Assembly (NCBI RefSeq): GCF_041248615.1
Contig: NZ_CP158424.1
Source of the DNA: Escherichia coli
Lineage (GTDB): Bacteria; Pseudomonadota; Gammaproteobacteria; Enterobacterales; Enterobacteriaceae
Length of the DNA: 11,988 bases
Strand: one strand, 5' to 3'
Part shown: positions 1 to 11,988 of the stretch, one piece after another
Layout of the letters: each line of letters starts with the position of its first letter
How positions within the stretch are numbered: position 1 is the stretch's first letter
Position numbers and translations under genes: made by a program
Notes under the pieces: model-generated
Told to the model about the DNA's origin: nothing
Seen by the model: the letters and a program-made list of their open reading frames with translations, nothing else
The model's database searches: none

Positions 1-422
1 TACGCACTCAATTCCGGAGGGGGAGTGTAGGGAAGTGCCTGATTTATTTTATGTACGCGCAAAAATGAGATAGCTTTTATTAGATATCATCAGCCCTGTC
101 TGCATCAGTCAGCTCCTTACAGCGTCAGGAGTACTGATGAAGGGGGGAACGTTCCTGCGTTTTTGCAAAGGCAATCCGGCTAGAGGCTTTACTACGCAGA
201 AACATTCCGGACAACTTTTTACCCCAGTGTAACCTGTAGATCAACCAGATTTTGTTGCAGTAAAAATACAGTGGTTTCGCATTTGTAATATTTGTCACAA
301 AAATAACATCAATATGTTGGTTTTCTGTTGATAAATGGTTTGGTCGCTGATTATGATTTCCTTGTACTCCACAGGAGTACAGTCATGTGCATACTAAAAT
401 CCGTGTTTTCGATAAAATTAAG

Positions 423-449
423 GCCGTGATACAGAATCACGGCTTTTTT
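423..449 (+). terminator. Putative rho-independent terminator
   Basis: Hairpin GCCGTGAT (423-430) / loop acaga / ATCACGGC (436-443) followed by T6 (444-449). Read directly from sequence. Confidence 0.5.
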
Positions 450-617
450 CTTGCCTGAAAGGATCATTTACGCTAGAAGAGTTATGAGCGCGTCTCTGGT
501 GTTTGTTGCAGGGATAATATCTAATATGGGGCACCGGAAACGCGCTCTCCCTTCGTATACAGAATGCCCATTAATTTCTTCTTCCTGATTTTCCAGACAT
601 ATATTCTTGTGTAAATT

Positions 618-702
618 AAAAAACAGAGCGTGTTTCTGGTGTGAATTTGTTGGCTACAATGTGCATTGTTGTTCTGTGTTCCAGAAACACGCTTCTTTTT
701 TG
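618..702. repeat. Long inverted repeat with about 41-bp spacer, A-run upstream and T-run downstream
   Basis: Left arm aaaaaaCAGAGCGTGTTTCTGG (618-639) pairs with right arm CCAGAAACACGCTTCttttttg (681-702); 13-bp perfect core AGCGTGTTTCTGG. Could be a large-loop terminator, sRNA structure or protein-binding site. Confidence 0.45.
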
Positions 703-826
703 AGATGCACATCAGTCTGATACAAAGAGGGATGGTTGTATCTGTGTCAGAGTTTTGTTATTTTTTTGTATGCTCAGTTATTGATGGTTAATAATATCAA
801 GAAAATCAGCAAGTTCCTTACGCTAC

Positions 827-851
827 CCCTCTTCAGTAGAGGGTTTTTTTT
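827..851 (+). terminator. Rho-independent terminator
   Basis: Stem CCCTCT (827-832) / loop tcagt / AGAGGG (838-843) followed by T8 (844-851). Confidence 0.6.
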
Positions 852-995
852 ATCTGGTACGCCGTAAAACCCGGTCCTTCAGGGCGTAGAGGATGTCAAA
901 AATTTCTTCGAAAGGTAATACCCGATATCCCGAAGGAATAACAACGAAGAGGATACAGATAAAGACATAATACGGATAAGTCATCAGGAGGAAGT

Positions 996-1133
996 ATGTC
1001 TTGGGTGAAACTGACGGAAGCAGAACGTAAGTGTAGTTGCGATGATTATGCTGCACAGGTTGCACAGTTAAAGTTGTCCGGCAGAGATAAATTGCCACGG
1101 GAAGTTAGAGAAAAGTGCGGGAAAATGTCTTAA
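996..1133 (+). CDS. Candidate small protein (45 aa), unknown function
   Basis: ATG 996 preceded by AGGAGG (986-991); translates MSWVKLTEAERKCSCDDYAAQVAQLKLSGRDKLPREVREKCGKMS, stop TAA 1131-1133. Below the ORF-track length cutoff. A 34-codon ORF (1136-1240) follows 2 nt later in another frame. No homolog recognised. Confidence 0.3.
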   Translation: MSWVKLTEAERKCSCDDYAAQVAQLKLSGRDKLPREVREKCGKMS

Positions 1134-1394
1134 GAATGATTCTGGAAGAACGAAAAGTAAGAAGCGCAAAGGCTATGAGGGCAAAAGAGTATCGTGCCGC
1201 AGCGAATACTTTTACCTGGCAGCCTGTACGGCGCAGGTGAATAGACATTCCCCTGACTCATCCTGCTCCCCTTGGCGGCGAAGGGGATTAATCCCTATCC
1301 TGTAACTTCTATTTTGTGGAATCGAAAACAGCCGAAAATTGTGAAAAAAAACCGTTTCAGTCGTCTCAGTAAGGAAATTCGCTTGTGATTCACC

Positions 1395-1545
1395 TGGATG
1401 CATAGGTATGCATAAGGTTAAAATTTATCAGGCGCGATCGCGGTAGTTTTTCGGGGGGGTTGTTGCCATTTTTACCTGTCTGCTGCCGTGATTGCGCTGA
1501 ATGCATTTCAGCGGTGCGTATAATTAAGGGATTATGGTAAATCCA
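1395..1545 (+). other. cer-like XerCD site-specific recombination site (plasmid multimer resolution) with upstream accessory region
   Basis: Core 1513-1542 GGTGCGTATAA-TTAAGGGA-TTATGGTAAAT matches the ColE1 cer XerC-arm/central-region/XerD-arm organisation as I recall it (one mismatch in the XerC arm). The about 120 bp upstream resembles cer accessory sequence (PepA/ArgR region). Accessory boundary is approximate. Confidence 0.75.
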
Positions 1546-1546
1546 C

Positions 1547-1966
1547 TTACTGTCTTCCCTCGTAGCCATCGAGATAAACCGCAGAAATCGTCTCAGCCAG
1601 CAGCCTGGATTTTTTCGGGGTAAGGTCTTTGCTGCGGTAATCAGTACCCGCAAATTGAGTTGTGCCCCGGAGTGAGTTTAAAAATTCCTGGCTGTGAAAC
1701 TGCTGAATGCGTTGCTGCACATCACTCCGTGATTTTCCTGTCGCTTTATCCTTTGCTCCCATATCCCAGAACTGCCGGAAAAAAGGCACCATCATTCGTG
1801 TTGTGTCGGCCTTCTGGGTGGAAAAGTTAGGATCAAAACCATCGTCTGATGCATAAACGTAATGCCGGGTATGTTGTTCCACACTGCCCTTTGGCGTGCA
1901 GGCTGTCAGGACCGTTGCCGCTGTCAGCAGGGCGATAAGATACAGTGTGCCGCCGGAACGTCTCAT
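1547..1966 (-). CDS. Putative lipoprotein (139 aa), function unknown
   Basis: ATG at 1966 with AAGGAG 7 nt upstream (complement of 1974-1979). N-terminus MRRSGGTLYLIALLTAATVLTAC is a signal peptide with lipobox LTAC. Hydrophilic mature part. Lies immediately downstream of the HTH gene on the same strand. Confidence 0.75.
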   Translation of the reverse strand: MRRSGGTLYLIALLTAATVLTACTPKGSVEQHTRHYVYASDDGFDPNFSTQKADTTRMMVPFFRQFWDMGAKDKATGKSRSDVQQRIQQFHSQEFLNSLRGTTQFAGTDYRSKDLTPKKSRLLAETISAVYLDGYEGRQ

Positions 1967-2049
1967 GAGTGTCTCCTTACCTTTAAATCTTTGTACTCAG
2001 TGACTTATATTTAACCGCTGACTATCTTATCATCACTTGCAGCCGGTGC

Positions 2050-2487
2050 TCACCGGCTGAACAGTCTGGCCCAGAATCCCCGTTTTTTTTCCTGCTCCAG
2101 TGCCTGCCTGAGCTGCTCTATCTCTTTATGTAGCTGTTCCCGTTCGGCTTCTTGGCGCCGGCGTTCCGTATCCTGTGCCTGTTTGTCCTCAAGCATCAGT
2201 GTCAGGCATTGTTTCAGCTCATTCAGCTCCCGGAGAATGCGTTCTGTCTGCTGATCATGTGGATTTTCTGCCTGTCCCACAGTGTGCCTTTCTTGTGTCT
2301 CATTTTGCTTTAATTCGCCGTATGCCCGGATCAGTTCACTGGTTTCAAACTCCCTTCGTCCGTCCTGGCTGGTACGGTAACTGACAAGACCTGAGCGCAT
2401 ATCACGGTAAAACTGTGAACGCGATCTTCCAGTCATTTTCAGTGCGTCCTGGAGTGTGTGCCATGCCATAAAGTTACAGTGTCCCAT
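2050..2487 (-). CDS. Putative DNA-binding protein: AlpA/Xis-like HTH N-terminus with C-terminal coiled coil
   Basis: Segment TLQDALKMTGRSRSQFYRDMRSG has a helix-turn-helix pattern (xTGxSRSxxYR) seen in AlpA/excisionase-type HTH proteins; C-terminal 60 aa is charged heptad-like (EAEREQLHKEIEQLRQALEQEKK). Start uncertain: ATG 2487 or ATG 2469, neither with a strong SD. Divergent from the colicin promoter. Confidence 0.65.
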   Translation of the reverse strand: MGHCNFMAWHTLQDALKMTGRSRSQFYRDMRSGLVSYRTSQDGRREFETSELIRAYGELKQNETQERHTVGQAENPHDQQTERILRELNELKQCLTLMLEDKQAQDTERRRQEAEREQLHKEIEQLRQALEQEKKRGFWARLFSR

Positions 2488-2745: not shown

Positions 2746-4602
2746 ATGCCGGGGTTTAATTACGGTGGGTATGGTGACGGTACTGGCTGGAGTTCTGAAA
2801 GTGGTGGTCCAGCTCCAGGCGGTGGTATGCATGGAAATAGTGGAGGCCAGCGCGGAGATAACGCAAACAGTAGCAATTCTGTGAGTCAGCAGATTTCTGC
2901 CATTCAGAATGATCAGAAACTTAAACAGAAAGTGGTGAATATGCTGATTGCTGCGAGAAAAATGAATCCTGAAGCAAAAATGATTCTGGGAAGTATTGCT
3001 CCTTCTGGTGTTATGCAGGTCACCATTGAGGGGGTAACCTCCACTCAGGCCAGGCAGCTTGGTTTGGGAGGGCTGGTCATGGGATATAACGCTTCTGGTG
3101 TTATTGGGGCTGTGGGCGAAATAGACACCGGTCACCGCCTTAATGCATCAGGAGCAAGTACTCCCGGAAGCGAAACTTCTGTGGAGAGTTTTGTGAACGG
3201 ACAGAAACCAGCCGGAGAATGGCATGCTGTGGCGAAGGACAGCTGGACAGGGGCTGGTCCAGTGAATGTAGGGCTGGTTAATAACGCCATCAAAAGTGTC
3301 CGGATTATCAAAAAAGGCTATGTGACGGGCGTTCTCACGCCAGAAGAGGTGATGAATAAAGCAGAGTACAAAGCAATGCGGCAGGCTTTCGATTCCCTTC
3401 CACTGGCAAAACAGGGAGAGGCTGTCAGACAGATTGTTGCTGCTTGGAGTCTGGCATATCAGGATTTTCCGGTAAATCTGAAAAAAGAGATGGGGCGTGT
3501 CACTGAACGGATTGTTGATGCTATTAACCTGGCGCTCATTCTTAATCAGACAGAGTCCCGTTTGTCGGAATCACAAAAGAATGTTGATGTAGCGAACCAG
3601 ATTATCAGTGATACAGTAAAAGCTATTAATGATGTAAATAAGAAAATAGCAGAAAAACGAAATCAGCAGGTATCACTGACTGATTTGATGAATAAAAAAC
3701 AAAAAGAGGTCGAAGATCTTAAAAAGATATTCAAAAATCACTCTTATCACCGTATTCGTGATGCCCAGAGGGAATATGATGATGCCCGAAATAAATATGC
3801 TTTACTGGCCAGTGATATTAATGCGCTGCAGGCACAGGTTTCCGGACTGACGGCAAGGAAACAGCAGGCAGAACAGAACAAGGCAGCAGCAGAAAAAGCA
3901 AAGGCAGATGCAGCGGCGAAAGCTGCAGCAGAAAAAGCGGCTGCTGAAGCGAAAGCAAAGGCTGAAGCTGAAAAAGCCAGAAAGGAAGCAGAGGAAAAAG
4001 CAAATGACGAGAAGGCTGTTCTGACAAAAGCCAGTGAAATTATCATCAGTGTTGGTGATAAGGCTGGGGAGTATCTGGGTGATAAATATAAAGTTCTTTC
4101 TCGTGAGATAGCAGATAATATCAAAAACTTTCAGGGCAAAACGATTCGTAGTTATGATGAGGCGATGGCTTCTGTCAATAAACTGATGGCTAATCCTGAT
4201 CTTAAAATTAATGCCGCCGACAGGGATGCAATTGTGAATGCTTGGAAAGCATTTGATGCAGAGGATATGGGGAATAAGTTTGCCGCGCTGGGTAAGACGT
4301 TTAAAGCCGCAGATTATATGATGAAGGCAAACAACGTCCGGGAGAAGAGTATCGAGGGGTATCAGACCGGAAACTGGGGGCCGCTGATGCTGGAGATTGA
4401 GTCCTGGGTATTGAGTGGTATTGCTTCTGCTGTGGCGCTATCATTTTTCTCAGTCGCTGTTGGTTCATTATTTATTACAGCGGGCGTGTCTGTAACGGCT
4501 GTGGGACTTATGGGCATTATTTTTGCTGGCTTTATCGGTGCGCTGATTGATGATGATTTTGTTGATAAGTTAAATAACGAAATTATTCGCCCTGCGTATT
4601 AA
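2746..4602 (+). CDS. Pore-forming colicin, colicin A/U/Y family (618 aa)
   Basis: Track ORF 2704-4602 begins at a TTG; best start is ATG 2746 (GAGG 2735-2738, 7-nt spacer). N-terminus MPGFNYGGYGDGTGWSSE plus Gly-rich segment matches the colicin A translocation-domain start as I recall it. Ala/Lys/Glu-rich helical linker. C-terminal about 200 aa (NFQGKTIRSYDEAMAS ... NWGPLMLEIESWVLSGIAS ... hydrophobic helical hairpin ... NNEIIRPAY) matches the colicin A-subgroup pore-forming domain. Length is close to colicin U/Y. Confidence 0.93.
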   Translation: MPGFNYGGYGDGTGWSSESGGPAPGGGMHGNSGGQRGDNANSSNSVSQQISAIQNDQKLKQKVVNMLIAARKMNPEAKMILGSIAPSGVMQVTIEGVTSTQARQLGLGGLVMGYNASGVIGAVGEIDTGHRLNASGASTPGSETSVESFVNGQKPAGEWHAVAKDSWTGAGPVNVGLVNNAIKSVRIIKKGYVTGVLTPEEVMNKAEYKAMRQAFDSLPLAKQGEAVRQIVAAWSLAYQDFPVNLKKEMGRVTERIVDAINLALILNQTESRLSESQKNVDVANQIISDTVKAINDVNKKIAEKRNQQVSLTDLMNKKQKEVEDLKKIFKNHSYHRIRDAQREYDDARNKYALLASDINALQAQVSGLTARKQQAEQNKAAAEKAKADAAAKAAAEKAAAEAKAKAEAEKARKEAEEKANDEKAVLTKASEIIISVGDKAGEYLGDKYKVLSREIADNIKNFQGKTIRSYDEAMASVNKLMANPDLKINAADRDAIVNAWKAFDAEDMGNKFAALGKTFKAADYMMKANNVREKSIEGYQTGNWGPLMLEIESWVLSGIASAVALSFFSVAVGSLFITAGVSVTAVGLMGIIFAGFIGALIDDDFVDKLNNEIIRPAY

Positions 4603-4641: not shown

Positions 4642-5154
4642 CCAGAGTTTATATGCTATTACTGGTTGGAGGCAGAGGGCGTAAGTTATGAAAAAAGAGC
4701 AATAATACAGGCAGATATAAAAGATAAGCAAAGTAAGATCGTTCTCAGACATCAATCGAACAGGTCTTCCCGATGTTGTTAACTCGAAGTTATGCCACAA
4801 GAAAAAATAAGCATAAAAAATACACAAAAAGGGGGACAGTATACAAGCTGTTATGATTTTTTTTCTGTCTGTTATTTTGGTGGTTCTTGTGTGTTTGAAT
4901 AGCATGATGAAAGCTATAAATGCTAATAATGGTGCGCTCTTACCGTAGATATCCATCACCTTTGTCATCACAGGGTTATATGAAGAAATTACTGAAGGTA
5001 TATTTTGAGTATTATCGAAAATGATGCGGATTAAATAGAAGTTGGGGTTTGATGTATAAGTTATAAAAATAATAATTAATGGGATTATACCCGCGAAAGT
5101 AATCAAAAAAAGCATCCTGTTTAAATCTTTGTTGTAAGTGTACTCTTTTTGCAT
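4630..5154 (-). CDS. Colicin immunity protein, A-type (four-TM inner-membrane protein, 174 aa)
   Basis: Antisense to the colicin gene, as in pore-forming colicin operons. Several hydrophobic segments. Motifs SSYNPVMTKVMDIY and NFELTTSGRPVRLM match the colicin A immunity protein (Cai) as recalled. GGGAG 10 nt upstream of ATG 5154. Confidence 0.9.
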   Translation of the reverse strand: MQKEYTYNKDLNRMLFLITFAGIIPLIIIFITYTSNPNFYLIRIIFDNTQNIPSVISSYNPVMTKVMDIYGKSAPLLAFIAFIMLFKHTRTTKITDRKKIITACILSPFLCIFYAYFFLWHNFELTTSGRPVRLMSENDLTLLIFYICLYYCSFFITYALCLQPVIAYKLWKER

Positions 5155-5273: not shown

Positions 5274-5414
5274 ATGAAAATGATATTATCAGGAGGGATG
5301 CTTGTCTTGATGGCTTTGCTATCAGGCTGCCAGGCTAATTATATTCGCGATGTTCAGGGAGGGACCGTCGCACCATCCTCCTCTTCTGAACTGACGGGAA
5401 TCGCGGTTCAGTAG
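5274..5414 (+). CDS. Colicin lysis (bacteriocin release) lipoprotein, 46 aa
   Basis: Not in the ORF track (below length cutoff). ATG 5274 with GAGGGG 3 nt upstream. [46 protein letters not shown]: signal peptide, lipobox LSGC, and mature start [14 protein letters not shown] nearly identical to the colicin A lysis protein as recalled. Confidence 0.88.
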
Positions 5415-5422
5415 AAAAGATC

Positions 5423-5449
5423 AAAGGATCTTCTTGAGATCCTTTTTTT
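5423..5449 (+). terminator. Rho-independent terminator after the lysis gene
   Basis: AAAGGATCT (5423-5431) / loop tcttg / AGATCCTTT (5437-5445) with T-run 5443-5449. Same element is found upstream of the RNA II promoter in pMB1-type replicons. Confidence 0.7.
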
Positions 5450-5462
5450 CTGCGCGTAATCT
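5434..5462 (+). promoter_or_regulatory. RNA II (replication primer) promoter
   Basis: TTGAGA (5434-5439), 17-bp spacer, TAATCT (5457-5462); same sequence as the pMB1/ColE1 RNA II promoter. Confidence 0.75.
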
Positions 5463-5469
5463 GCTGCTT

Positions 5470-5579
5470 GCAAACAAAAAAACCACCGCTACCAACGGTG
5501 GTTTGTTTGCCGGATCAAGAGCTACCAACTCTTTTTCCGAAGGTAACTGGCTTGGAGGAGCACAGTCACCAAAACCTGT
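5470..5579 (-). ncRNA. RNAI: RNA I, antisense copy-number and incompatibility regulator
   Basis: Complement of the first about 110 nt of RNA II. Stem-loop 1 (AACCACCGCTACCAACGGTGGTT) is conserved with pMB1; distal stem-loop sequence (5553-5579) diverges. Ends are approximate. Confidence 0.8.
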
Positions 5580-5585
5580 CTTTTC

Positions 5586-5615
5586 AGTTTAGCCTTAACC
5601 GGCTCATAACTTCAA
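5586..5615 (-). promoter_or_regulatory. Putative RNA I promoter
   Basis: On the minus strand: TTGAAG (complement of 5610-5615), 18-bp spacer, TAAACT (complement of 5586-5591), placing the start near 5579. Same layout as the pMB1 RNA I promoter. Confidence 0.5.
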
Positions 5616-5989
5616 GACCAACTCCTCTAAATCAGTTACCAGTGGCTGCTGCCAGTGGCGCTTTGTCGTGTCTTACCGGGTTGGACTCAAGACGATAGTT
5701 ACCGGATAAGGCGCAGCGGTCGGGCTGAACGGGGGGTTCGTGCACACAGCCCAGCTTGGAGCGAACGACCTACACCGAACTGAGATACCAACAGCGTGAG
5801 CTATGAGAAAGCGCCACGCTTCCCGAAGGGAGAAAGGCGGACAGGTATCCGGTAAACGGCAGGGTCGGAACAGGAGAGCGCACGAGGGAGCTTCCAGGGG
5901 GAAACGCCTGGTATCTTTATAGTCCTGTCGGGTTTCGCCACCTCTGACTTGAGCGTCAATTTTTGTGATGCTCGTCAGGGGGGCGGAGC

Positions 5990-6005
5990 CTATGGAAAAA
6001 CGCCA
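5990..6005 (+). other. ori: Origin of replication (RNA-to-DNA transition point), ColE1 type
   Basis: TATGGAAAAACGCCAGC corresponds to the pMB1 primer cleavage and DNA start site. Exact nucleotide not determinable by eye. Confidence 0.65.
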
Positions 6006-6224
6006 GCGGCGCGGCCTTTCGTTGCCCTTTGCCTTTTTGCTCACATGTTCTTTCCGGCCTTATCCCCTGATTCTGTGGATAACCGTATTACTGCCTTTGA
6101 GTGAGCTGGCACCGCTCGCCGCAGCCGAACGACCGAGCGTAGCGAGTCAGTGAGCGAGGAAGCGGAAGAGCGTCGGAAGTTGCATTTTCTCCTTACGCAT
6201 CTGTGCGGCATTTCACATCGGCTA

Positions 6225-6330
6225 TGGTGCACTTTTCATACAATCCGCACTGATGCCGCATGACTAAGCCAGTATACACTCCGCTATCGCTACGTGACTG
6301 GGTCATGGCTGCGCCCCGACACCCGCTAAC
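6225..6330. other. oriT: bom / oriT region (origin of transfer for mobilisation)
   Basis: Near-identity to the pBR322 bom region as recalled (...TAAGCCAGTATACACTCCGCTATCGCTACGTGACTGGGTCATGGCTGCGCCCCGACACC...). Located between ori and rop as in ColE1. Nick site not assigned. Confidence 0.6.
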
Positions 6331-6414
6331 ACCCGCTGAAGCGCCCTGATGGGCTTGTCTGCTCCCGGCATCTGCTCACTGACAAACTGTGACCGTCTCC
6401 GGGAGCTGCATGTG

Positions 6415-6606
6415 TCAGAGGTTTTCACCGTCATCCCCGAAACGTGCGAGGCAACTGCGGTAAAGCTCATCGGCGTGGTCGTGAAGCGATTCACAGATGT
6501 CTGCCTGTTCATCCGCGTCCAGTTCGTTGAGCTTCTCCAGCAGCGTTAATGTCTGGCTTCTGATAAAGCGGGCCATGTTAAGGGCAGTTTTTTCCTGTTT
6601 AGTCAC
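6415..6606 (-). CDS. rop: Rop/Rom, RNA I-RNA II pairing modulator (63 aa)
   Basis: GTG start at 6606 with GGAGG upstream; VTKQEKTALNMARFIRSQTLTLLEKLNELDADEQADICESLHDHADELYRSCLARFGDDGENL is the ColE1/pBR322 Rop sequence as recalled. The track ORF extends further upstream without an initiator. Confidence 0.93.
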   Translation of the reverse strand: MTKQEKTALNMARFIRSQTLTLLEKLNELDADEQADICESLHDHADELYRSCLARFGDDGENL

Positions 6607-6637
6607 TGATGCCTCCGTGTAAGGGGGATTTCTGTTC

Positions 6638-6994
6638 ATGGGGGTAATGATACCGATGAAACGCGAGAGGATGCTCACGATACGGGTTACTGATGATGAA
6701 CATGCCCGGTTACTGGAACGCTGTGAGGGTAAACAACTGGCGGTATGGATGCGGCGGGTCTGCCTGGGTGAGCCGGTTGCCCGTTCCGGGAAGCTGCCGA
6801 CACTGGCACCGCCGTTACTGCGTCAGCTGGCCGCCATCGGGAATAACCTGAATCAGACAGCGAGGAAGGTGAACAGCGGGCAGTGGTCTTCCGGTGACCG
6901 GGTTCAGGTAGTGGCCGCACTGATGGCCATCGGGGAGGAGCTGCGCCGGCTGCGTCTGGCCGTCAGGGAACAGGGGGCGCGGGATGATAGTTAA
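6638..6994 (+). CDS. mbeC: Mobilisation protein MbeC/MobC (relaxosome accessory protein)
   Basis: MLTIRVTDDEHARLLERCEGKQLAVWMRR... matches the MobC N-terminal remnant retained in pBR322 and the ColE1 MbeC family. Divergent from rop. Start could be ATG 6638, 6656 or 6671; 6638 has the best SD spacing. Confidence 0.85.
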   Translation: MGVMIPMKRERMLTIRVTDDEHARLLERCEGKQLAVWMRRVCLGEPVARSGKLPTLAPPLLRQLAAIGNNLNQTARKVNSGQWSSGDRVQVVAALMAIGEELRRLRLAVREQGARDDS

Positions 6995-8549
6995 GTTTCA
7001 TGCCAGGGGAAAAGGTGGTGGCAGTGGTCCGGTTGATTACCTGCTGGGAAGGGAGCGTAACCGGGAAGGGGCAACGGTGCTTCAGGGTAATCCGGAAGAA
7101 GTCCGGGAACTCATCGATGCCACGCCATTTGCGAAGAAATACACGTCAGGTGTTCTGTCGTTCGCGGAGAAGGAGCTGCCGCCGGGAGGACGTGAAAAAG
7201 TGATGGCGAGCTTTGAGCGTGTACTGATGCCCGGTCTCGAAAAAAATCAGTACAGCATCCTGTGGGTGGAGCACCAGGACAAGGGACGGCTTGAGCTGAA
7301 TTTTGTCATTCCGAACATGGAGCTACAGAGCGGAAAACGCCTCCAGCCGTACTACGACCGGGCAGACAGGCCGAGAATTGATGCCTGGCAGACGCTGGTT
7401 AATCACCATTACGGGCTGCATGACCCCAACGCCCCGGAGAACCGCCGGACGCTGACTCTCCCTGATAACCTGCCGGAAACGAAACAGGCGCTTGCTGAGA
7501 GCGTCACACGCGGGATAGACGCTCTTTATCATGTCGGGGAGATAAAAGGCCGTCAGGATGTGATTCAGGCGCTCACAGAGGCGGGGCTTGAAGTGGTCAG
7601 AGTGACGCGAAGCAGCATCAGTATTGCAGACCCGAACGGCGGGAAGAATATCAGGCTGAAAGGAGCATTCTATGAGCAATCTTTTACAGACGGGCGCGGA
7701 GTTCGAGAAAAAGCTGAAAGAGAGAGCCGCATCTACAGAGAAAATGCTGAACGACGAGTTCAGGAAGCTCGAAGAATCTGTAAACAGGGAACTGACCTCA
7801 AACGAATCTTTAATCAGGAACGCTATCAACGCCCATACAGCAGCCCTGAAAGAACTTCTGGAGAGGTATCAGAAAACGACCGTCAGCACGATGGACACAC
7901 ACTGGCAAACCGTGCTGAAAATGAGCGTGAAACGCTGGCTGTGGCTGATTATCGTCTCAGTGCTGATGTTTGCCACGACCGGGAGTCTGCTGTGGTACCA
8001 GGGCATGAAGATAAACGCAAACATGAATATTCTCCGCGAGCAGAAAGAGAGTCTGGAGAAGCTGAACGCGAAGACATGGGGCGTGCGTTATCACGAGGAC
8101 AGCAACGGACGTTTTCTGGTGTTGCCGAAGGGGATGAAAGCCGAAACGCACTGGACGGAGGACAACGGCAAACTGAACGCAGTGAGACTGGTACAGGAGT
8201 GACAGAGCATGACGGAGCTGGAAAAACATTTGCTGAACGCCTTAGAGCAACTGCAACAGGACTATATGCAGCGGCTGAACGAATGGGAGAGCGCCTTCGT
8301 GGAATTGCAGAAGATGTTTTCGCTTACGCAACGGGACAACGCGATGCTGAACGAGCGGGTCATGCAGTTGAGTCAGCAGGTGCAGCACTTGAGCGAGCGG
8401 ACAGAACGCTTGAGCCAGTTATACAGCGAGAACAGGAGATAAGGGACGAACGGCTGATACAGGAACGCGAACATGAGTTATCCCTGGAGCGTGAGCGCCA
8501 TCTGGAAATACAGGAACGGACACTGGATGGCCCGTCGCTGGGATGGTAA
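6984..8549 (+). CDS. mbeA: Relaxase MbeA/MobA (ColE1-type, 521 aa)
   Basis: N-terminus MIVKFHARGKGGGSGPVDYLLG... is characteristic of ColE1-family relaxases; start overlaps the mbeC stop; C-terminal half is Arg/Glu-rich as in MbeA. Confidence 0.92.
   Translation: MIVKFHARGKGGGSGPVDYLLGRERNREGATVLQGNPEEVRELIDATPFAKKYTSGVLSFAEKELPPGGREKVMASFERVLMPGLEKNQYSILWVEHQDKGRLELNFVIPNMELQSGKRLQPYYDRADRPRIDAWQTLVNHHYGLHDPNAPENRRTLTLPDNLPETKQALAESVTRGIDALYHVGEIKGRQDVIQALTEAGLEVVRVTRSSISIADPNGGKNIRLKGAFYEQSFTDGRGVREKAERESRIYRENAERRVQEARRICKQGTDLKRIFNQERYQRPYSSPERTSGEVSENDRQHDGHTLANRAENERETLAVADYRLSADVCHDRESAVVPGHEDKRKHEYSPRAERESGEAEREDMGRALSRGQQRTFSGVAEGDESRNALDGGQRQTERSETGTGVTEHDGAGKTFAERLRATATGLYAAAERMGERLRGIAEDVFAYATGQRDAERAGHAVESAGAALERADRTLEPVIQREQEIRDERLIQEREHELSLERERHLEIQERTLDGPSLGW
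7672..8202 (+). CDS. mbeB: MbeB/MobB mobilisation protein, nested in an alternative frame of mbeA
   Basis: ATG 7672 with AGGAG upstream; 176 aa with a predicted TM segment (WLWLIIVSVLMFATTGSLLW). Nested arrangement matches ColE1 mbeB. Confidence 0.75.
   Translation: MSNLLQTGAEFEKKLKERAASTEKMLNDEFRKLEESVNRELTSNESLIRNAINAHTAALKELLERYQKTTVSTMDTHWQTVLKMSVKRWLWLIIVSVLMFATTGSLLWYQGMKINANMNILREQKESLEKLNAKTWGVRYHEDSNGRFLVLPKGMKAETHWTEDNGKLNAVRLVQE
8209..8442 (+). CDS. mbeD: MbeD/MobD (77 aa coiled-coil protein), nested within mbeA
   Basis: ATG 8209 with AGGAG 9 nt upstream; helical, Gln/Leu-rich sequence; position directly after mbeB as in ColE1. Confidence 0.7.
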   Translation: MTELEKHLLNALEQLQQDYMQRLNEWESAFVELQKMFSLTQRDNAMLNERVMQLSQQVQHLSERTERLSQLYSENRR

Positions 8550-8769
8550 CCAAAGACAGGCTAAAATGTTGTCAGCGCGTTTCCGGTGCATTTTTTTGGA
8601 TAATGGTTGGTTCGGGGCACCAGGAACGAGCTTCAGTCAGGCCTTGCTGAAAACACAGGAACGCGTTAAAACGCATACGGACGCGTTTCTGGCGGTCAAA
8701 AACCACGGGGTTAGTGTGGGTAGTGTGTATAGCAACAGGAGCCTGGAACGCGTTCCGCTTCTTCTGTAA
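8473..8769 (+). CDS. Hypothetical ORF overlapping the mbeA 3' end (possibly mbeE-like)
   Basis: ATG 8473 with AGGA 7 nt upstream; 98 aa; extends 220 bp beyond the mbeA stop. No recognisable motifs. Confidence 0.3.
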   Translation: MSYPWSVSAIWKYRNGHWMARRWDGNQRQAKMLSARFRCIFLDNGWFGAPGTSFSQALLKTQERVKTHTDAFLAVKNHGVSVGSVYSNRSLERVPLLL

Positions 8770-9498
8770 TAGACGCCAGAATGCGTTTAATGCTTCTTCT
8801 GATGGTATCAGAGAGGAGCAGCTTGAGTTATTCCTGTTGGCCACAGAGCGTAATTATCTCCTTTTCAGATCCACACGGGGATACGTCAGAGTAGGAACTG
8901 AGCAAGGATTACTGAAAGATACTTTTTGCCAGAAAAAAATCCTCATACATGATGAGGATAAAGTCTTAAAGGTCCATTCTATGGAGTGTCGGATTGAAAA
9001 ATTTCTCCGGATGATATCCTTCACAGTTTAAATGTGATTTCAACCATAAGTTTTTTATGGATTTTGTTAAATAAAAAAGAATTGAGTCGTGTTTCTGATA
9101 TGTCTTAATATAATAAGTGAACAGTTATAAAATAATTGTGTTATATTTATTGTGAGTTTGATGTTATGTTCTGCATAAATAACTGTAGTTTAGAATATTA
9201 TTCTTTTATATTTATAGCTGTGAGATGATAAATTATAAGTGTTCTTTGTGCTATAAAGAACCCCCCGTATAAGGGGGGGAAAGATGGGTTTACTTCTTTT
9301 TAGTCCATGCCCTGGTGAGCTACATGAAGCTCGACACTACAGTAAAAATTTGGCAGTTTTTTTGAACTTTACGCAAGCAATTTATTTACATTGTAAAGAA
9401 AACCCCCTCAATTTGCGTATTACCGTGAAGGAGATCGGTGAGTAACATCGATGGAGATCGGTTCGTGTCACTTTCACAGAACCGTTTTTAAATTACCT

Positions 9499-10248
9499 TC
9501 ACTGATCTCCTTCGGTCAACGGAGATTGTATTTTCCGCATTGATTCTCCTTTAAGTTCGATCTTGATACTGCCATGAACCAGTCGATCTAGGATGGCATC
9601 CGCATGTGTGGAGTCTCCGATCATTTTGTACCAGTTTTCCACCGGCAACTGGCTCACTACGATGATTGAGCCTCGTTGGTACATCAGATCCACTATTTCC
9701 AGCAGGTCGCTACGCTGTTCTGATGAGAGAGGTTCCAGCCCCCAGTCATCCAGAAGCAGCAGATCGCTATTATTCAGCCTGGTCAAAAGTTTGCTGTATC
9801 TTCCATCAGCATGCCCCTGATAGCACTGTTCCATCAGCGCTTTAAGGCGATAATAGTAGACCTTGTATCCCTGTCGGCAGGCATTATGACCAAGTGCACA
9901 TGCCAGGAACGTTTTACCGCTGCCGGTGGCCCCGGTCAGTAAAATATTTTGTTTCAGGGTTAACCAGTTTCCCTGACTGAGTGAACGGATGAGGGCCCTG
10001 TCCAGCCCTCTATTGTTACGATAATCCAGCTTTGATAACTCAGCATTAAGTCTGAACCGTGCATGTTTGATCAGACGCTCTGCCTTCCTGTTTTCACGGC
10101 AGGTTAGTTCTTCTGCTGTCAGTAATGACAGGCGTTCTTCGAAGCCCAGCTCCTGGTATGTGCCCGGCTGAGCAAGTTGCTTTTTAAGCGCATCACGGAA
10201 GCCGGTGAGTTTAAGTGCGGTCAGTTGTTCGTAAAGATGATTCATCAT
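9499..10248 (-). CDS. istB: IstB-like ATPase helper of IS21-family transposition (249 aa)
   Basis: Walker A motif GATGSGKT and Walker B-like LLLLDDWG; size and position directly downstream of istA. Confidence 0.92.
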   Translation of the reverse strand: MMNHLYEQLTALKLTGFRDALKKQLAQPGTYQELGFEERLSLLTAEELTCRENRKAERLIKHARFRLNAELSKLDYRNNRGLDRALIRSLSQGNWLTLKQNILLTGATGSGKTFLACALGHNACRQGYKVYYYRLKALMEQCYQGHADGRYSKLLTRLNNSDLLLLDDWGLEPLSSEQRSDLLEIVDLMYQRGSIIVVSQLPVENWYKMIGDSTHADAILDRLVHGSIKIELKGESMRKIQSPLTEGDQ

Positions 10249-10259
10249 TGGATCCCGTA

Positions 10260-11801
10260 TCAGTGGTAATACTCACTGCCGCGTACGTTTTCGTGTTCCA
10301 TCGTGGATAACAGATCTGGTTTTGGATCCTGAACAGGTTGTTTATCCAGACCTTTTTCCAGGATCGATTTAATACCTGACAGACGCCATACCTTTGTTTT
10401 CAGAGCTCTTGCACATGCTGCATTAAGTCTGGCTTTACTGTATTTTTTATGAAGGTTCAGGAGTCCAAGGCAGAAGCGATAGCTTTGTTCCGGATGTGGA
10501 CGAGAGTTCAGTATATGAAGCACATAACTATGAGTTTCACTGCCTATGTGCCCCGCCCATTCCAGAAGACGCTCTGGCGTCCAGGTGGCATGCTGTCGAT
10601 GAGCTTCAGGCATGTGCTCGTTGCGGGTACTGTAGCCATAAGTACGCTTGCGCGGGTGCACAGCAACCTCCTGCCCCTGATTGAAGAGTCTTACCAGTTC
10701 TCCGGAGATCCATGCTTCCAGTTGCTGGCCTAACAGCGAACATGGAACCGAGTAGTAATGTTTGTCGATTTCCACGTGGTAATCGGCATGAACTCTGACT
10801 TTCTTCACCAGGGTGTAACTGTAACTGGCTTCAGGAAGAGGCTTCAGTGCGGGTTTATCAAGCTGGATGAAGAGTTCTGCACGTGAATAACCCAACTTCT
10901 GCATTATTTTGTTATTCAGTCTTTCCAGCAACTCCCGAATGCGCTGATTAAGCGATGCAAGGCTGTAGAAGATCTCATGCCTGATTCGGGCCATGATCCA
11001 GCGTTCAACAACCTGAACGCCAACTTCAGCTTTGGCTTTATCTTTCGGTTTACGTGGCCGCGCAGGCAAAACTGCGACATTATAATGCTCAAGCATCTGC
11101 TGGTAGGTAGGGTTAACGTCAGGATCATACTTACATGCCCTGGATGTGGCGCTTTTCAGATTGTCCGGAACAACAAGTTCAGGAACGCCACCCAACCACT
11201 GGAAGCAGCGAACATGACTCATCACCCAGTCTTCAAGCTGCTGAGACCAGGTGGCCTCTGCCCATGTGTAACTTGATGCCCCGAGAACAGCTACGATGAC
11301 CTGAGCAGTTCTTATTTCTCCGGTCTCAGGGTCGGTAACGCCAACGGTAGGTCCACAGTAATCAACGAAAAGTTTTTCGCCAGCTTTATGTACCTGACGC
11401 ATTGATGGTGAAGTGGTTTTGAGCCATTCACGGTACATCCGGCAGTAATGGTTATAGCTGTAAAAACCGCCTGGATTACGCTCACAGTATTCTTCCCAGA
11501 GTAGCTGCAGCGTCACGCATTTATTACGCAGTTCCCGGTGTACTGTAGCCCAGTCAGGCAGAGAGTGCTTCTTCATCTTAACCTGGGTCTGAAGGAACGC
11601 ATGTTTTAGTTTTGTATCATCCCATCCTGTAGGTAAGGGCCACTGCTTTATGCCAAGTTGAGCCGCCCGATTAGCATATCTGGATACAACGGAAGGGGAG
11701 ATTGCAAGACTACGACCAATTTGTCGATGGCTGAGTCCAACACCGTATTTAAGCCTAAGAATTTCTTTAAGTTTTCTCATAGAAATTGGAACTGTTGGCA
11801 T
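10260..11801 (-). CDS. istA: IstA transposase, IS21 family (513 aa)
   Basis: N-terminal HTH (LKEILRLKYGVGLSHRQIGRSLAISPSVVSRY) followed by a long catalytic region; AGGA 5 nt upstream of ATG 11801; 11-bp gap to istB. Confidence 0.92.
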   Translation of the reverse strand: MPTVPISMRKLKEILRLKYGVGLSHRQIGRSLAISPSVVSRYANRAAQLGIKQWPLPTGWDDTKLKHAFLQTQVKMKKHSLPDWATVHRELRNKCVTLQLLWEEYCERNPGGFYSYNHYCRMYREWLKTTSPSMRQVHKAGEKLFVDYCGPTVGVTDPETGEIRTAQVIVAVLGASSYTWAEATWSQQLEDWVMSHVRCFQWLGGVPELVVPDNLKSATSRACKYDPDVNPTYQQMLEHYNVAVLPARPRKPKDKAKAEVGVQVVERWIMARIRHEIFYSLASLNQRIRELLERLNNKIMQKLGYSRAELFIQLDKPALKPLPEASYSYTLVKKVRVHADYHVEIDKHYYSVPCSLLGQQLEAWISGELVRLFNQGQEVAVHPRKRTYGYSTRNEHMPEAHRQHATWTPERLLEWAGHIGSETHSYVLHILNSRPHPEQSYRFCLGLLNLHKKYSKARLNAACARALKTKVWRLSGIKSILEKGLDKQPVQDPKPDLLSTMEHENVRGSEYYH

Positions 11802-11988
11802 AGGTATCCTTTACCGGAATGGCAAAAGATACAGATCAACACACCTGTGAAGTTCCAATAACATTGATGGAGATCACTGAATAACAAAATGAGTCAAAAG
11901 TGATCTCCATCGATGTTATTCAGCGATCTGTTCAAATGTTATTACCCGATCTCGATGGAAGTTATTGAGTGATCTCCTTTCATGAAAA

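Follow-up and report, generated by a model that had tools for sequence, protein, structure and literature searches.

A conserved, terminator-rich non-coding segment of a mobilizable colicin R plasmid of Escherichia coli, with candidate small-RNA units and a 45-nt IS200/IS605-family mini-element

The stretch analysed here (the window, 11,988 nt) is the sequence of plasmid p14408_3 (NZ_LT599828.1, E. coli NRZ14408), rotated by 569 bases. This is a ColE1-type, mobilizable plasmid that encodes colicin R. Its first 1,390 bases had been singled out in a preliminary description as a gene-poor region. Aligned with a twin plasmid that is free of the insertion sequence (IS), region 1-1390 proves to be the right-hand half of an accessory segment of ~2.1 kb that lacks open reading frames (ORFs) and is split by the IS21-family element ISEc12. 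To judge from the comparisons below, ~830 bp of it (24-852), together with 720 bp beyond the IS (8694-9413), is a conserved, terminator-rich non-coding module, hereafter the core. Much of the rest is of known kinds. Direct sequence comparisons for the mini-element, the broken gene and cer establish the region as a mosaic: an IS end at 1-6, a mini-element at 855-899, a frameshifted gene at 996-1240 and a cer site from ~1342. The core may be a series of short transcription units, each with its own terminator (candidate small RNAs). A probability of about 0.45 is given to this reading, which is suggested by terminator enrichment, terminator-anchored conservation and a few compensated base pairs.

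Conservation and terminators of the core

The region is indeed poor in ORFs, as the preliminary description had stated. The longest ORF in 7-1390 has 82 amino acids (aa), against 76.8 +/- 20.3 in 500 shuffles, and RefSeq and PLSDB annotate no gene in the 1-1390 region, either in the window plasmid or in its IS-free twin. The guanine-plus-cytosine content of 7-1390 is 41.8%, against 47.9% in the coding part of the plasmid.

In a BLAST search of 72,556 plasmids and 5,426 complete E. coli genomes, the segment is confined to two lineages (three plasmid backgrounds for one of its parts, unit f). The first consists of small colicin plasmids of 8.9-9.4 kb with ~99% identity. The second is a fragment of ~82% identity, shared with 24-852, in large IncK2/Z conjugative plasmids (locus L005), where it is located between nikB-pemIK and trbC. 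It extends from ~130 bp past the place of the mbeA stop to the stop codon of an 81-aa gene. It has IS2/IS3-type interruptions and is surrounded by IS debris (fragments of IS1, IS2, IS3, IS66, and IS256); it is probably an IS-captured piece of another ColE1-like small plasmid. Scanning metagenomes with a 20-mer of unit d added no lineage: apart from the known ones it gave a single chance match, in a coding region.

The features of the core and its immediate surroundings are as follows (T, terminator; Hp, hairpin; SD, Shine-Dalgarno sequence).

8573-8634 (3167-3228 in the twin, locus L002): hairpin HpA, in the conserved backbone just downstream of mbeA
8694-9413: left half of the segment, with hairpin HpB (8678-8758), two conserved blocks (8937-9016 and 9283-9352) and the minus-strand terminators T1 (8959-8939) and T2 (9280-9261)
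7-23, minus strand: 3' half of terminator T3, whose intact form (CCCCCTCCGGAATTGAGGGGG + TTTTCTTT) is at L002 4017-3997
24-300, minus strand: unit c, a non-coding stretch conserved at 80-98% identity (one 5-nt indel) that leads into T3
328-357, plus strand: sigma-70-like promoter, the best of the region (TTGATA-18-TATGAT, 10/12 match)
364-452, plus strand: unit d, a candidate ~85-nt RNA with a 5' hairpin, an A/U-rich single strand and T4 with a U tail
385-429: small ORF of 14 aa, its AGGAG within a hairpin
453-552, plus strand: near-identical block with hairpin HpC (486-501/532-547) and most of the next ORF
484-588: small ORF of 34 codons (MSASLVFVAGIISNMGHRKRALPSYTECPLISSS; 34 aa) with a weak GAAGAG SD
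588-615, minus strand: promoter-like site (TTTACA-16-GAAAAT), a consensus match only, kept in both lineages (L005 6906-6933)
619-701: long inverted repeat HpD/T5, with a 14-bp stem, a 41-nt loop and A-run/T-run flanks
734-852, plus strand: unit f, a ~120-bp module (GGTTGTATCT...AAATCAG..TTCCTTAC..CCCTC-loop-GAGGG-T8) ending in T6 (827-843)

Two clean intrinsic terminators and a long inverted repeat had been reported in the preliminary description, and all three are found: the terminators at 420-446 and 827-843, both on the plus strand, and the repeat at 619-639/681-701, with arms 86% complementary and 41 nt between them. Conservation and covariance among related plasmids had been named there as a check, and the second lineage shows strongly patchy identity, near-identical blocks close upstream of kept terminators and at least two terminator stems with compensatory changes. 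Blocks of 95-100% identity (8937-9016, 9283-9352, 233-272, 353-432, 453-552, and 730-799) alternate with stretches of 45-60%. Every conserved block lies directly 5' of an intrinsic terminator on one strand, and six terminator positions are kept in both lineages (T1-T3 on the minus strand, T4-T6 on the plus strand). The whole segment in the IS-free twin has nine terminator-like sites against 2.4 +/- 1.9 expected, and the second lineage has six against 1.2 +/- 1.1. For window 1-2100 alone the count (3 vs 2.3 +/- 1.7) is not significant.

The coding tests gave no sign of a gene in the core. A six-frame Pfam scan of the core found no domain and no decayed gene. A six-frame query of a large protein collection was also empty, a soft negative because the query was an X-joined artificial sequence. 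Among ORFs of 12 codons or more, both lineages keep just four intact, and these lie within the most conserved 260 bp; no core ORF has coding constraint in the two-lineage comparison. The 57-aa ORF at 125-298 is broken in the second lineage. Unit c would be a ~300-nt minus-strand transcript, again a candidate; no convincing promoter was found for it. The preliminary description had favored small-RNA or small-protein loci over random spacer. For the core at 24-852 the small-RNA half of this view gains support and the small-protein half does not. Homology to decayed genes, the outcome named there as a refutation, holds for 996-1240 only, and not for 24-852 or 8694-9413.

A different explanation of the same pattern is that the core is functionless mobile-DNA filler, in which patchy identity reflects recombination or gene-conversion tracts and the hairpins and terminators are left from former genes. 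Four parts are in fact debris or hitch-hikers (the IS end, the mini-element, the pseudogene and, in the 8.9-kb sister plasmids, an IS remnant). A mid-segment IS insertion is tolerated, the large-plasmid copy sits amid IS fragments, and the long hairpin HpD is not conserved. This explanation is considered rather unlikely. Recombination tracts would be expected to be longer than the 60-100 bp of the blocks with 95-100% identity, and these blocks coincide with terminator-proximal positions six times. Six-frame translation of the core reveals no decayed domain, and unit f is kept in a third, unrelated backbone.

Units d and f, the 34-codon ORF and the hairpin family

The clearest candidate among the proposed transcription units is unit d. 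Identity between the lineages climbs from ~57% to >90% right at the -10 hexamer of the 328-357 promoter; this hexamer is identical in both lineages and the -35 hexamer differs (TTGCCG). Bases 373-422 are 100% identical. The 89-nt stretch of unit d has a fold z score of -4.3, and its 5' hairpin (GTACTCC/GGAGTAC) sequesters AGGAG. T4 (420-446) is kept in the second lineage, its stem carrying one C-G to T-A compensatory pair. The 5-nt loop of T4 (ACAGA, window 429-437) is exactly inverted to TCTGT in L005, as would follow if the spacer had flipped between short inverted repeats. Transcription from 328-357 that ends at 420-446 would produce the candidate ~85-nt RNA. Alternatively, unit d may be a leader, with 420-446 acting as an attenuator and 453-701 being read through from it. 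Since the SD of the 14-codon ORF (385-429) is buried in the 5' hairpin and its stop lies inside the T4 stem, this arrangement appears as plausible as a free-standing small RNA. No Rfam family matched unit d, and a literature search by sequence string returned no paper on it.

Block 453-701 may in addition be opposed by an antisense RNA starting near 581. From the promoter-like site at 588-615, such an RNA would be ~170 nt long, cross the 34-codon ORF and end at T4 read on the minus strand. This layout raises the possibility of a small-protein locus or type I toxin-antitoxin system, in which the 34-codon ORF is translated under the control of the 14-codon leader/attenuator and the antisense RNA from 615-588. 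As in ibs/sib and ldr/rdl, a hydrophobic start is followed by a basic cluster (HRKR), a promoter-like site opposes the ORF and is kept in both lineages, and a bidirectional terminator is shared, 420-446 reading as a terminator on both strands. The ORF is also intact in both lineages, from start to stop. Unlike those systems, however, it has neither toxin homology nor coding constraint. There are two synonymous vs six non-synonymous codon changes, which argues against purifying selection on its C-terminal half, and the N-terminal half, which is conserved, maps to a hairpin stem. With only ~14 residues, the hydrophobic run falls short of a membrane helix, and the ORF has a weak SD. Neither Pfam nor NCBIfam (toxin families included) gave a match to it, and no relative was found among 5.8 billion protein clusters. 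Such a system is therefore regarded as very unlikely.

Unit f at 734-852 would be a second transcript of the proposed kind, a candidate ~85-120-nt unit (734-850) that also occurs on unrelated small plasmids. It is found in three plasmid backgrounds with a sharp left border, the copies on MobQ-type Col8282 plasmids having ~80-83% identity. T6 is kept in the second lineage with one stem pair changed on both sides. Over its last ~80 bp, unit f is paralogous, in inverted orientation, to the end of unit c (score 57 vs 21 +/- 3.5 for shuffles), and the motif A.TTCC.TAC.CT is invariant in all seven sequences. The promoter candidate of unit f (TTGTAT-17-TATTTT) is weak and was seen by eye.

Units d and f resemble Hfq-type small RNAs in their length (~85-120 nt), in an A/U-rich stretch that precedes a U-tailed GC hairpin, in conservation confined to the presumed transcript, and in compensated stems. 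Unlike those, they match no Rfam family. The 14-codon ORF that ends in the terminator of unit d is also unlike a trans-acting RNA and fits a leader/attenuator better. That the candidate RNAs act as base-pairing regulators is a guess.

Another feature of the segment is a family of hairpins. L002 contains six copies of the 11-mer CGYGTYTCYGG where 0.01 are expected, and this 11-mer forms the stems of four related hairpins with partly shared loops (HpA, HpB, HpC, and HpD). HpD has fold z scores of -4.3 as RNA and -4.1 as DNA, and HpC one of -3.5, while HpA and HpB fold only marginally better than shuffles (-1.7 and -2.2). HpC and HpD differ by a compensated pair. HpD/T5 looks like a bidirectional terminator because its stem is flanked by an A-run and a T-run. 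HpA and ~145 bp past mbeA are ~90-93% conserved in many small ColE1-like E. coli plasmids without the rest of the segment.

These hairpins could be cis-acting DNA, for example priming signals on the strand that a recipient takes up as single-stranded DNA in mobilization, or a stability locus like pSC101 par. The over-represented 11-mer, the shared stems, the compensated HpC/HpD pair, the place of HpA in conserved backbone by the relaxase gene and the look-alike hairpins in a non-coding region of the MobQ-type Col8282 plasmids are all consistent with such a role. It is nevertheless judged improbable. No similarity was seen to any described priming or partition site tested, and scanning 100,044 species genomes for the HpD stem pair turned up only chance palindromes, 22 in all and scattered over unrelated phyla. 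The long stem of HpD is lost in the second lineage, HpA and HpB fold weakly, and units d and f and the terminators would be left unexplained. HpA-HpD may act as RNA, as single-stranded DNA in mobilization or not at all.

Several results weigh against a cluster of small-RNA units. Promoter-like sites are not enriched (8 vs 5.8 +/- 2.0), and promoters besides 328-357 are weak or not found. At the gathering score, Rfam 15 yields RNAI (5474-5577) only, and at E <= 5 it yields chance-level matches. Duplex energies of unit d with 13 plasmid translation-start regions are no better than those of shuffles (best z ~-2). The long stem of HpD is absent in the second lineage, where a short 3' hairpin and a T-run are left. 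T3 is destroyed by ISEc12 in this plasmid, yet the plasmid persists. Comparative power is low because there are only two or three lineages: with two of them, or three for unit f, covariation is at most one pair per stem. Recombination could also account for the patchy identity. Since the large-plasmid copy is probably IS-captured, selection may not act on it there.

The mini-element and other parts of known kinds

The borders of region 1-1390, and three parts within or next to it, are accounted for by the following features.

9414-11988 plus 1-6: ISEc12 (IS21 family), 2581 bp, window bases 1-6 being its end
8694-9413 plus 14-1390: the ORF-free segment of ~2.1 kb, between the mbeA stop and cer
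855-899, plus strand: protein-less mini-element of 45 nt, IS609/InsQ-type, 3' of a TTATC target at 850-854
996-1240, plus strand: frameshifted gene for an 81-aa basic protein, SD AGGAGG at 986-991
996-1133: small ORF of 45 aa, AGGAGG at 986-991
1241-1341: lineage-specific spacer with the hairpin CCCCTT-N7-AAGGGG at 1268-1286
1342-1545, plus strand: cer-family multimer-resolution site, XerC/XerD core GGTGCGTATAA-TTAAGGGA-TTATGGTAAAT at 1513-1542

Region 1-1390, treated as a unit in the preliminary description, is not a natural one: it begins in an IS end, contains the mini-element and ends within cer. The left border is artificial because bases 1-6 are the end of ISEc12. Window 5407-9413 and 7-2151 both align at 100% with the IS-free twin, pLH10-b-1-D, overlapping there by 7 bp, and this defines the span of ISEc12; CTCAATT at 7-13 and again at 9407-9413 is its 7-bp target duplication. 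With istA and istB (annotated at 9499-11801), defined ends and a short target duplication, the element is a regular member of the IS21 family. It is inserted in the hairpin loop of T3 (CCCCCTC-AATTCCG-GAGGGGG), so that the other arm is now at 9403-9409.

The mini-element consists of one hairpin, composed of the 5' half of a left end and the 3' half of a right end (...AGGATGTCAA). A ~51-bp stretch, TTTATC...GATGTCAA, recurs with sharp borders in eight unrelated contexts (e.g., 5' of hok on an IncI1 plasmid, in the ccdB-integrase gap of IncFII, on pCROD1, and after pacB on a P1-like plasmid). In the large-plasmid lineage the site is empty (TTTTTTAT[A]AAAATTC), without the 45 nt. A scan of viral contigs found 65 copies in 45 variants with a covarying stem, and TTATC precedes nearly all 45 variants. 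Many of these copies share this 5' half (TTATC, 9-10 nt, GTAAAA, hairpin) as the left end of a full element that encodes TnpA and/or TnpB. The ORFs directly downstream of this left end match Y1_Tnp (1e-14) and HTH_OrfB_IS605 (4e-20 to 5e-15), and the RefSeq name for the protein of the full elements is 'RNA-guided endonuclease InsQ/TnpB'. Their right end (...CCCCTTCCTTCAGGGAGGGGAGGACGTCAA) equals the hairpin of the mini-element plus AGGATGTCAA, with a near-identical hairpin followed by AGGAcGTCAA. In E. coli, the parent type (InsQ/TnpB, IS609-like) is present in 4916 of 5426 genomes, and 4867 have IS609/InsQ-type copies whose left end matches the 5' 41 nt of the mini-element. The mini-element itself is present, over at least 80% of its length, in 623 of the 5426.

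Insertion 3' of a fixed target without duplication is a hallmark of the IS200/IS605 family (IS608: TTAC...TCAA). Judged by its end hairpins, Y1/TnpB relatives, fixed target, lack of duplication and empty site, 855-899 is a non-autonomous, PATE-like element of this family. PATEs, protein-less derivatives of IS200/IS605-family elements, are known as a concept (PMC10055086). The mini-element is like them in its sub-terminal imperfect hairpin, its TTATC target without duplication, its ...GTCAA end and its many copies in phages, plasmids and chromosomes. It is unlike them in being only 45 nt long and in having a single hairpin for both ends, and because of these two properties it is unable to encode a full guide (omega) RNA. 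A literature search by sequence string found no paper on this particular element.

Two other assignments were considered for this site. Copies between ccdB and integrase genes, and papers on IncI1 and IncR plasmids, suggested an rfsF/ResD site at 850-899. There is some likeness to rfsF of F and R64: a partial resemblance, TCCGGnGnnCCG(T)AAAACCCC, a position at a module junction, and one copy between ccdB and a ResD-like integrase gene. This assignment was rejected because the F/R64 site (TCCGGAGATCCGAAAACCCCAAGTTACGGATC) differs, being unmatched within 3 mismatches, and because IS200/IS605 ends fully account for the mini-element. A structured RNA was suggested by G.U to A-U changes in the stem, and Rfam was empty. 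Such covariation is not diagnostic of RNA because a DNA hairpin recognised by TnpA would show the same. A hok/sok-like locus was likewise dropped, there being no Rfam match and no Hok-like ORF; the hok gene at locus L007 is merely near another copy of the mini-element.

BLAST also finds hundreds of chromosomal copies of the mini-element, mostly in genomes of the enterohaemorrhagic E. coli type. In the Stx1 prophage of O157:H7 TX 265-1 (L014 3001-3055), the element ends ~38 bp upstream of the stxA1 start codon, and its end (...GGATGTCAA) adjoins the stx1 promoter region. The 5.6-kb plasmid pMTY1886_Col8282 (L010) has two inverted copies ~235 bp apart, at 4263-4288 (minus strand) and 4524-4549 (plus strand). 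Further degenerate hairpins of that kind are at 3670-3735 and 4722-4750, and all four are in a 1.7-kb non-coding stretch.

Four small ORFs with SD-like sequences had been listed in the preliminary description. All are present, but two of them, 996-1133 and 1136-1240, are halves of one frameshifted gene. A 1-nt deletion between 1106 and 1107 divides it into a 45-aa ORF (996-1133) and a 34/41-aa ORF (1115/1136-1240). The intact 81-aa ORF (WP_045148228.1) is at the orthologous place in the large plasmids, and seven intact relatives with 69-98% identity keep the length and the C-terminal ENTFTWQPxRRR. The independent database sequence P0009 carries the same truncation, which argues against a sequencing error. 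The family is not assigned in Pfam or NCBIfam. A transposase (IS) remnant takes the place of 932-1076, and with it the 5' part of the gene, in the 8.9-kb sister plasmids. In other ColE1-like plasmids (loci L016-L019) the 81-aa gene is beside rop, once immediately downstream on the same strand.

Homology to the large plasmids ends at 1240 and broad ColE1 homology begins at ~1342, leaving the spacer between them. A MOBP-type nick site was considered there (ATCCTG at 1259-1264) and set aside as one hexamer at chance expectation. The cer site is like ColE1 cer, which resolves multimers in a XerCD/ArgR/PepA-dependent manner, in its canonical core and in accessory sequence homologous to thousands of ColE1-like plasmids; 2516 plasmid records match the cer region, starting at ~1342-1400 and running to 1546. 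Only ~50 bp of it (~1342-1390) overlap region 1-1390, and the core lies outside. Extra Xer sites and pdif-like modules were also looked for in the window, and the cer core is the sole Xer-type core found.

The remaining annotated genes of the plasmid are exc2 and exc1, the colicin R operon (cra, cri, and crl), rop, and mobC/mbeA-D, besides istA/istB of ISEc12; RNAI is placed at 5474-5577 by Rfam. RefSeq gives mbeA (6984-8549) as two pseudogene pieces, yet the window has one unbroken ORF of 521 aa there, the same as in the IS-free twin, so the pseudogene call looks like an annotation artefact. The motif ACAGGAACG is present three times near the mbeA stop (L002 3045, 3096, and 3241).

Implications for small plasmids

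Annotation of the region gains in two ways. Two 'ORFs' become one broken gene, and a protein search of the region is unwarranted. The 45-nt IS200/IS605 mini-element explains a repeat in hundreds of E. coli genomes, one copy of which is directly upstream of the Shiga toxin 1 genes.

A more specific proposal for the core can be made only as a long shot. The conserved core would be an undescribed family of plasmid small regulatory RNAs, carried by ColE1-type and Col8282-type mobilizable plasmids. Units c and f would be inverted paralogues (AAAUCAG..UUCCUUAC plus a terminator), and unit d a leader/attenuator feeding a sense-antisense pair at the 34-codon ORF, the whole controlling functions of plasmid or host (mobilization, colicin release or stability, for example).

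Small colicin plasmids are regarded as fully mapped, yet about one fifth of this one is conserved gene-free DNA. Its units also occur on other small plasmids from E. coli of poultry and humans, and IncK2/Z conjugative plasmids have captured a copy. If expressed, the terminator-bounded units would be new plasmid-encoded small RNAs in a textbook plasmid family.

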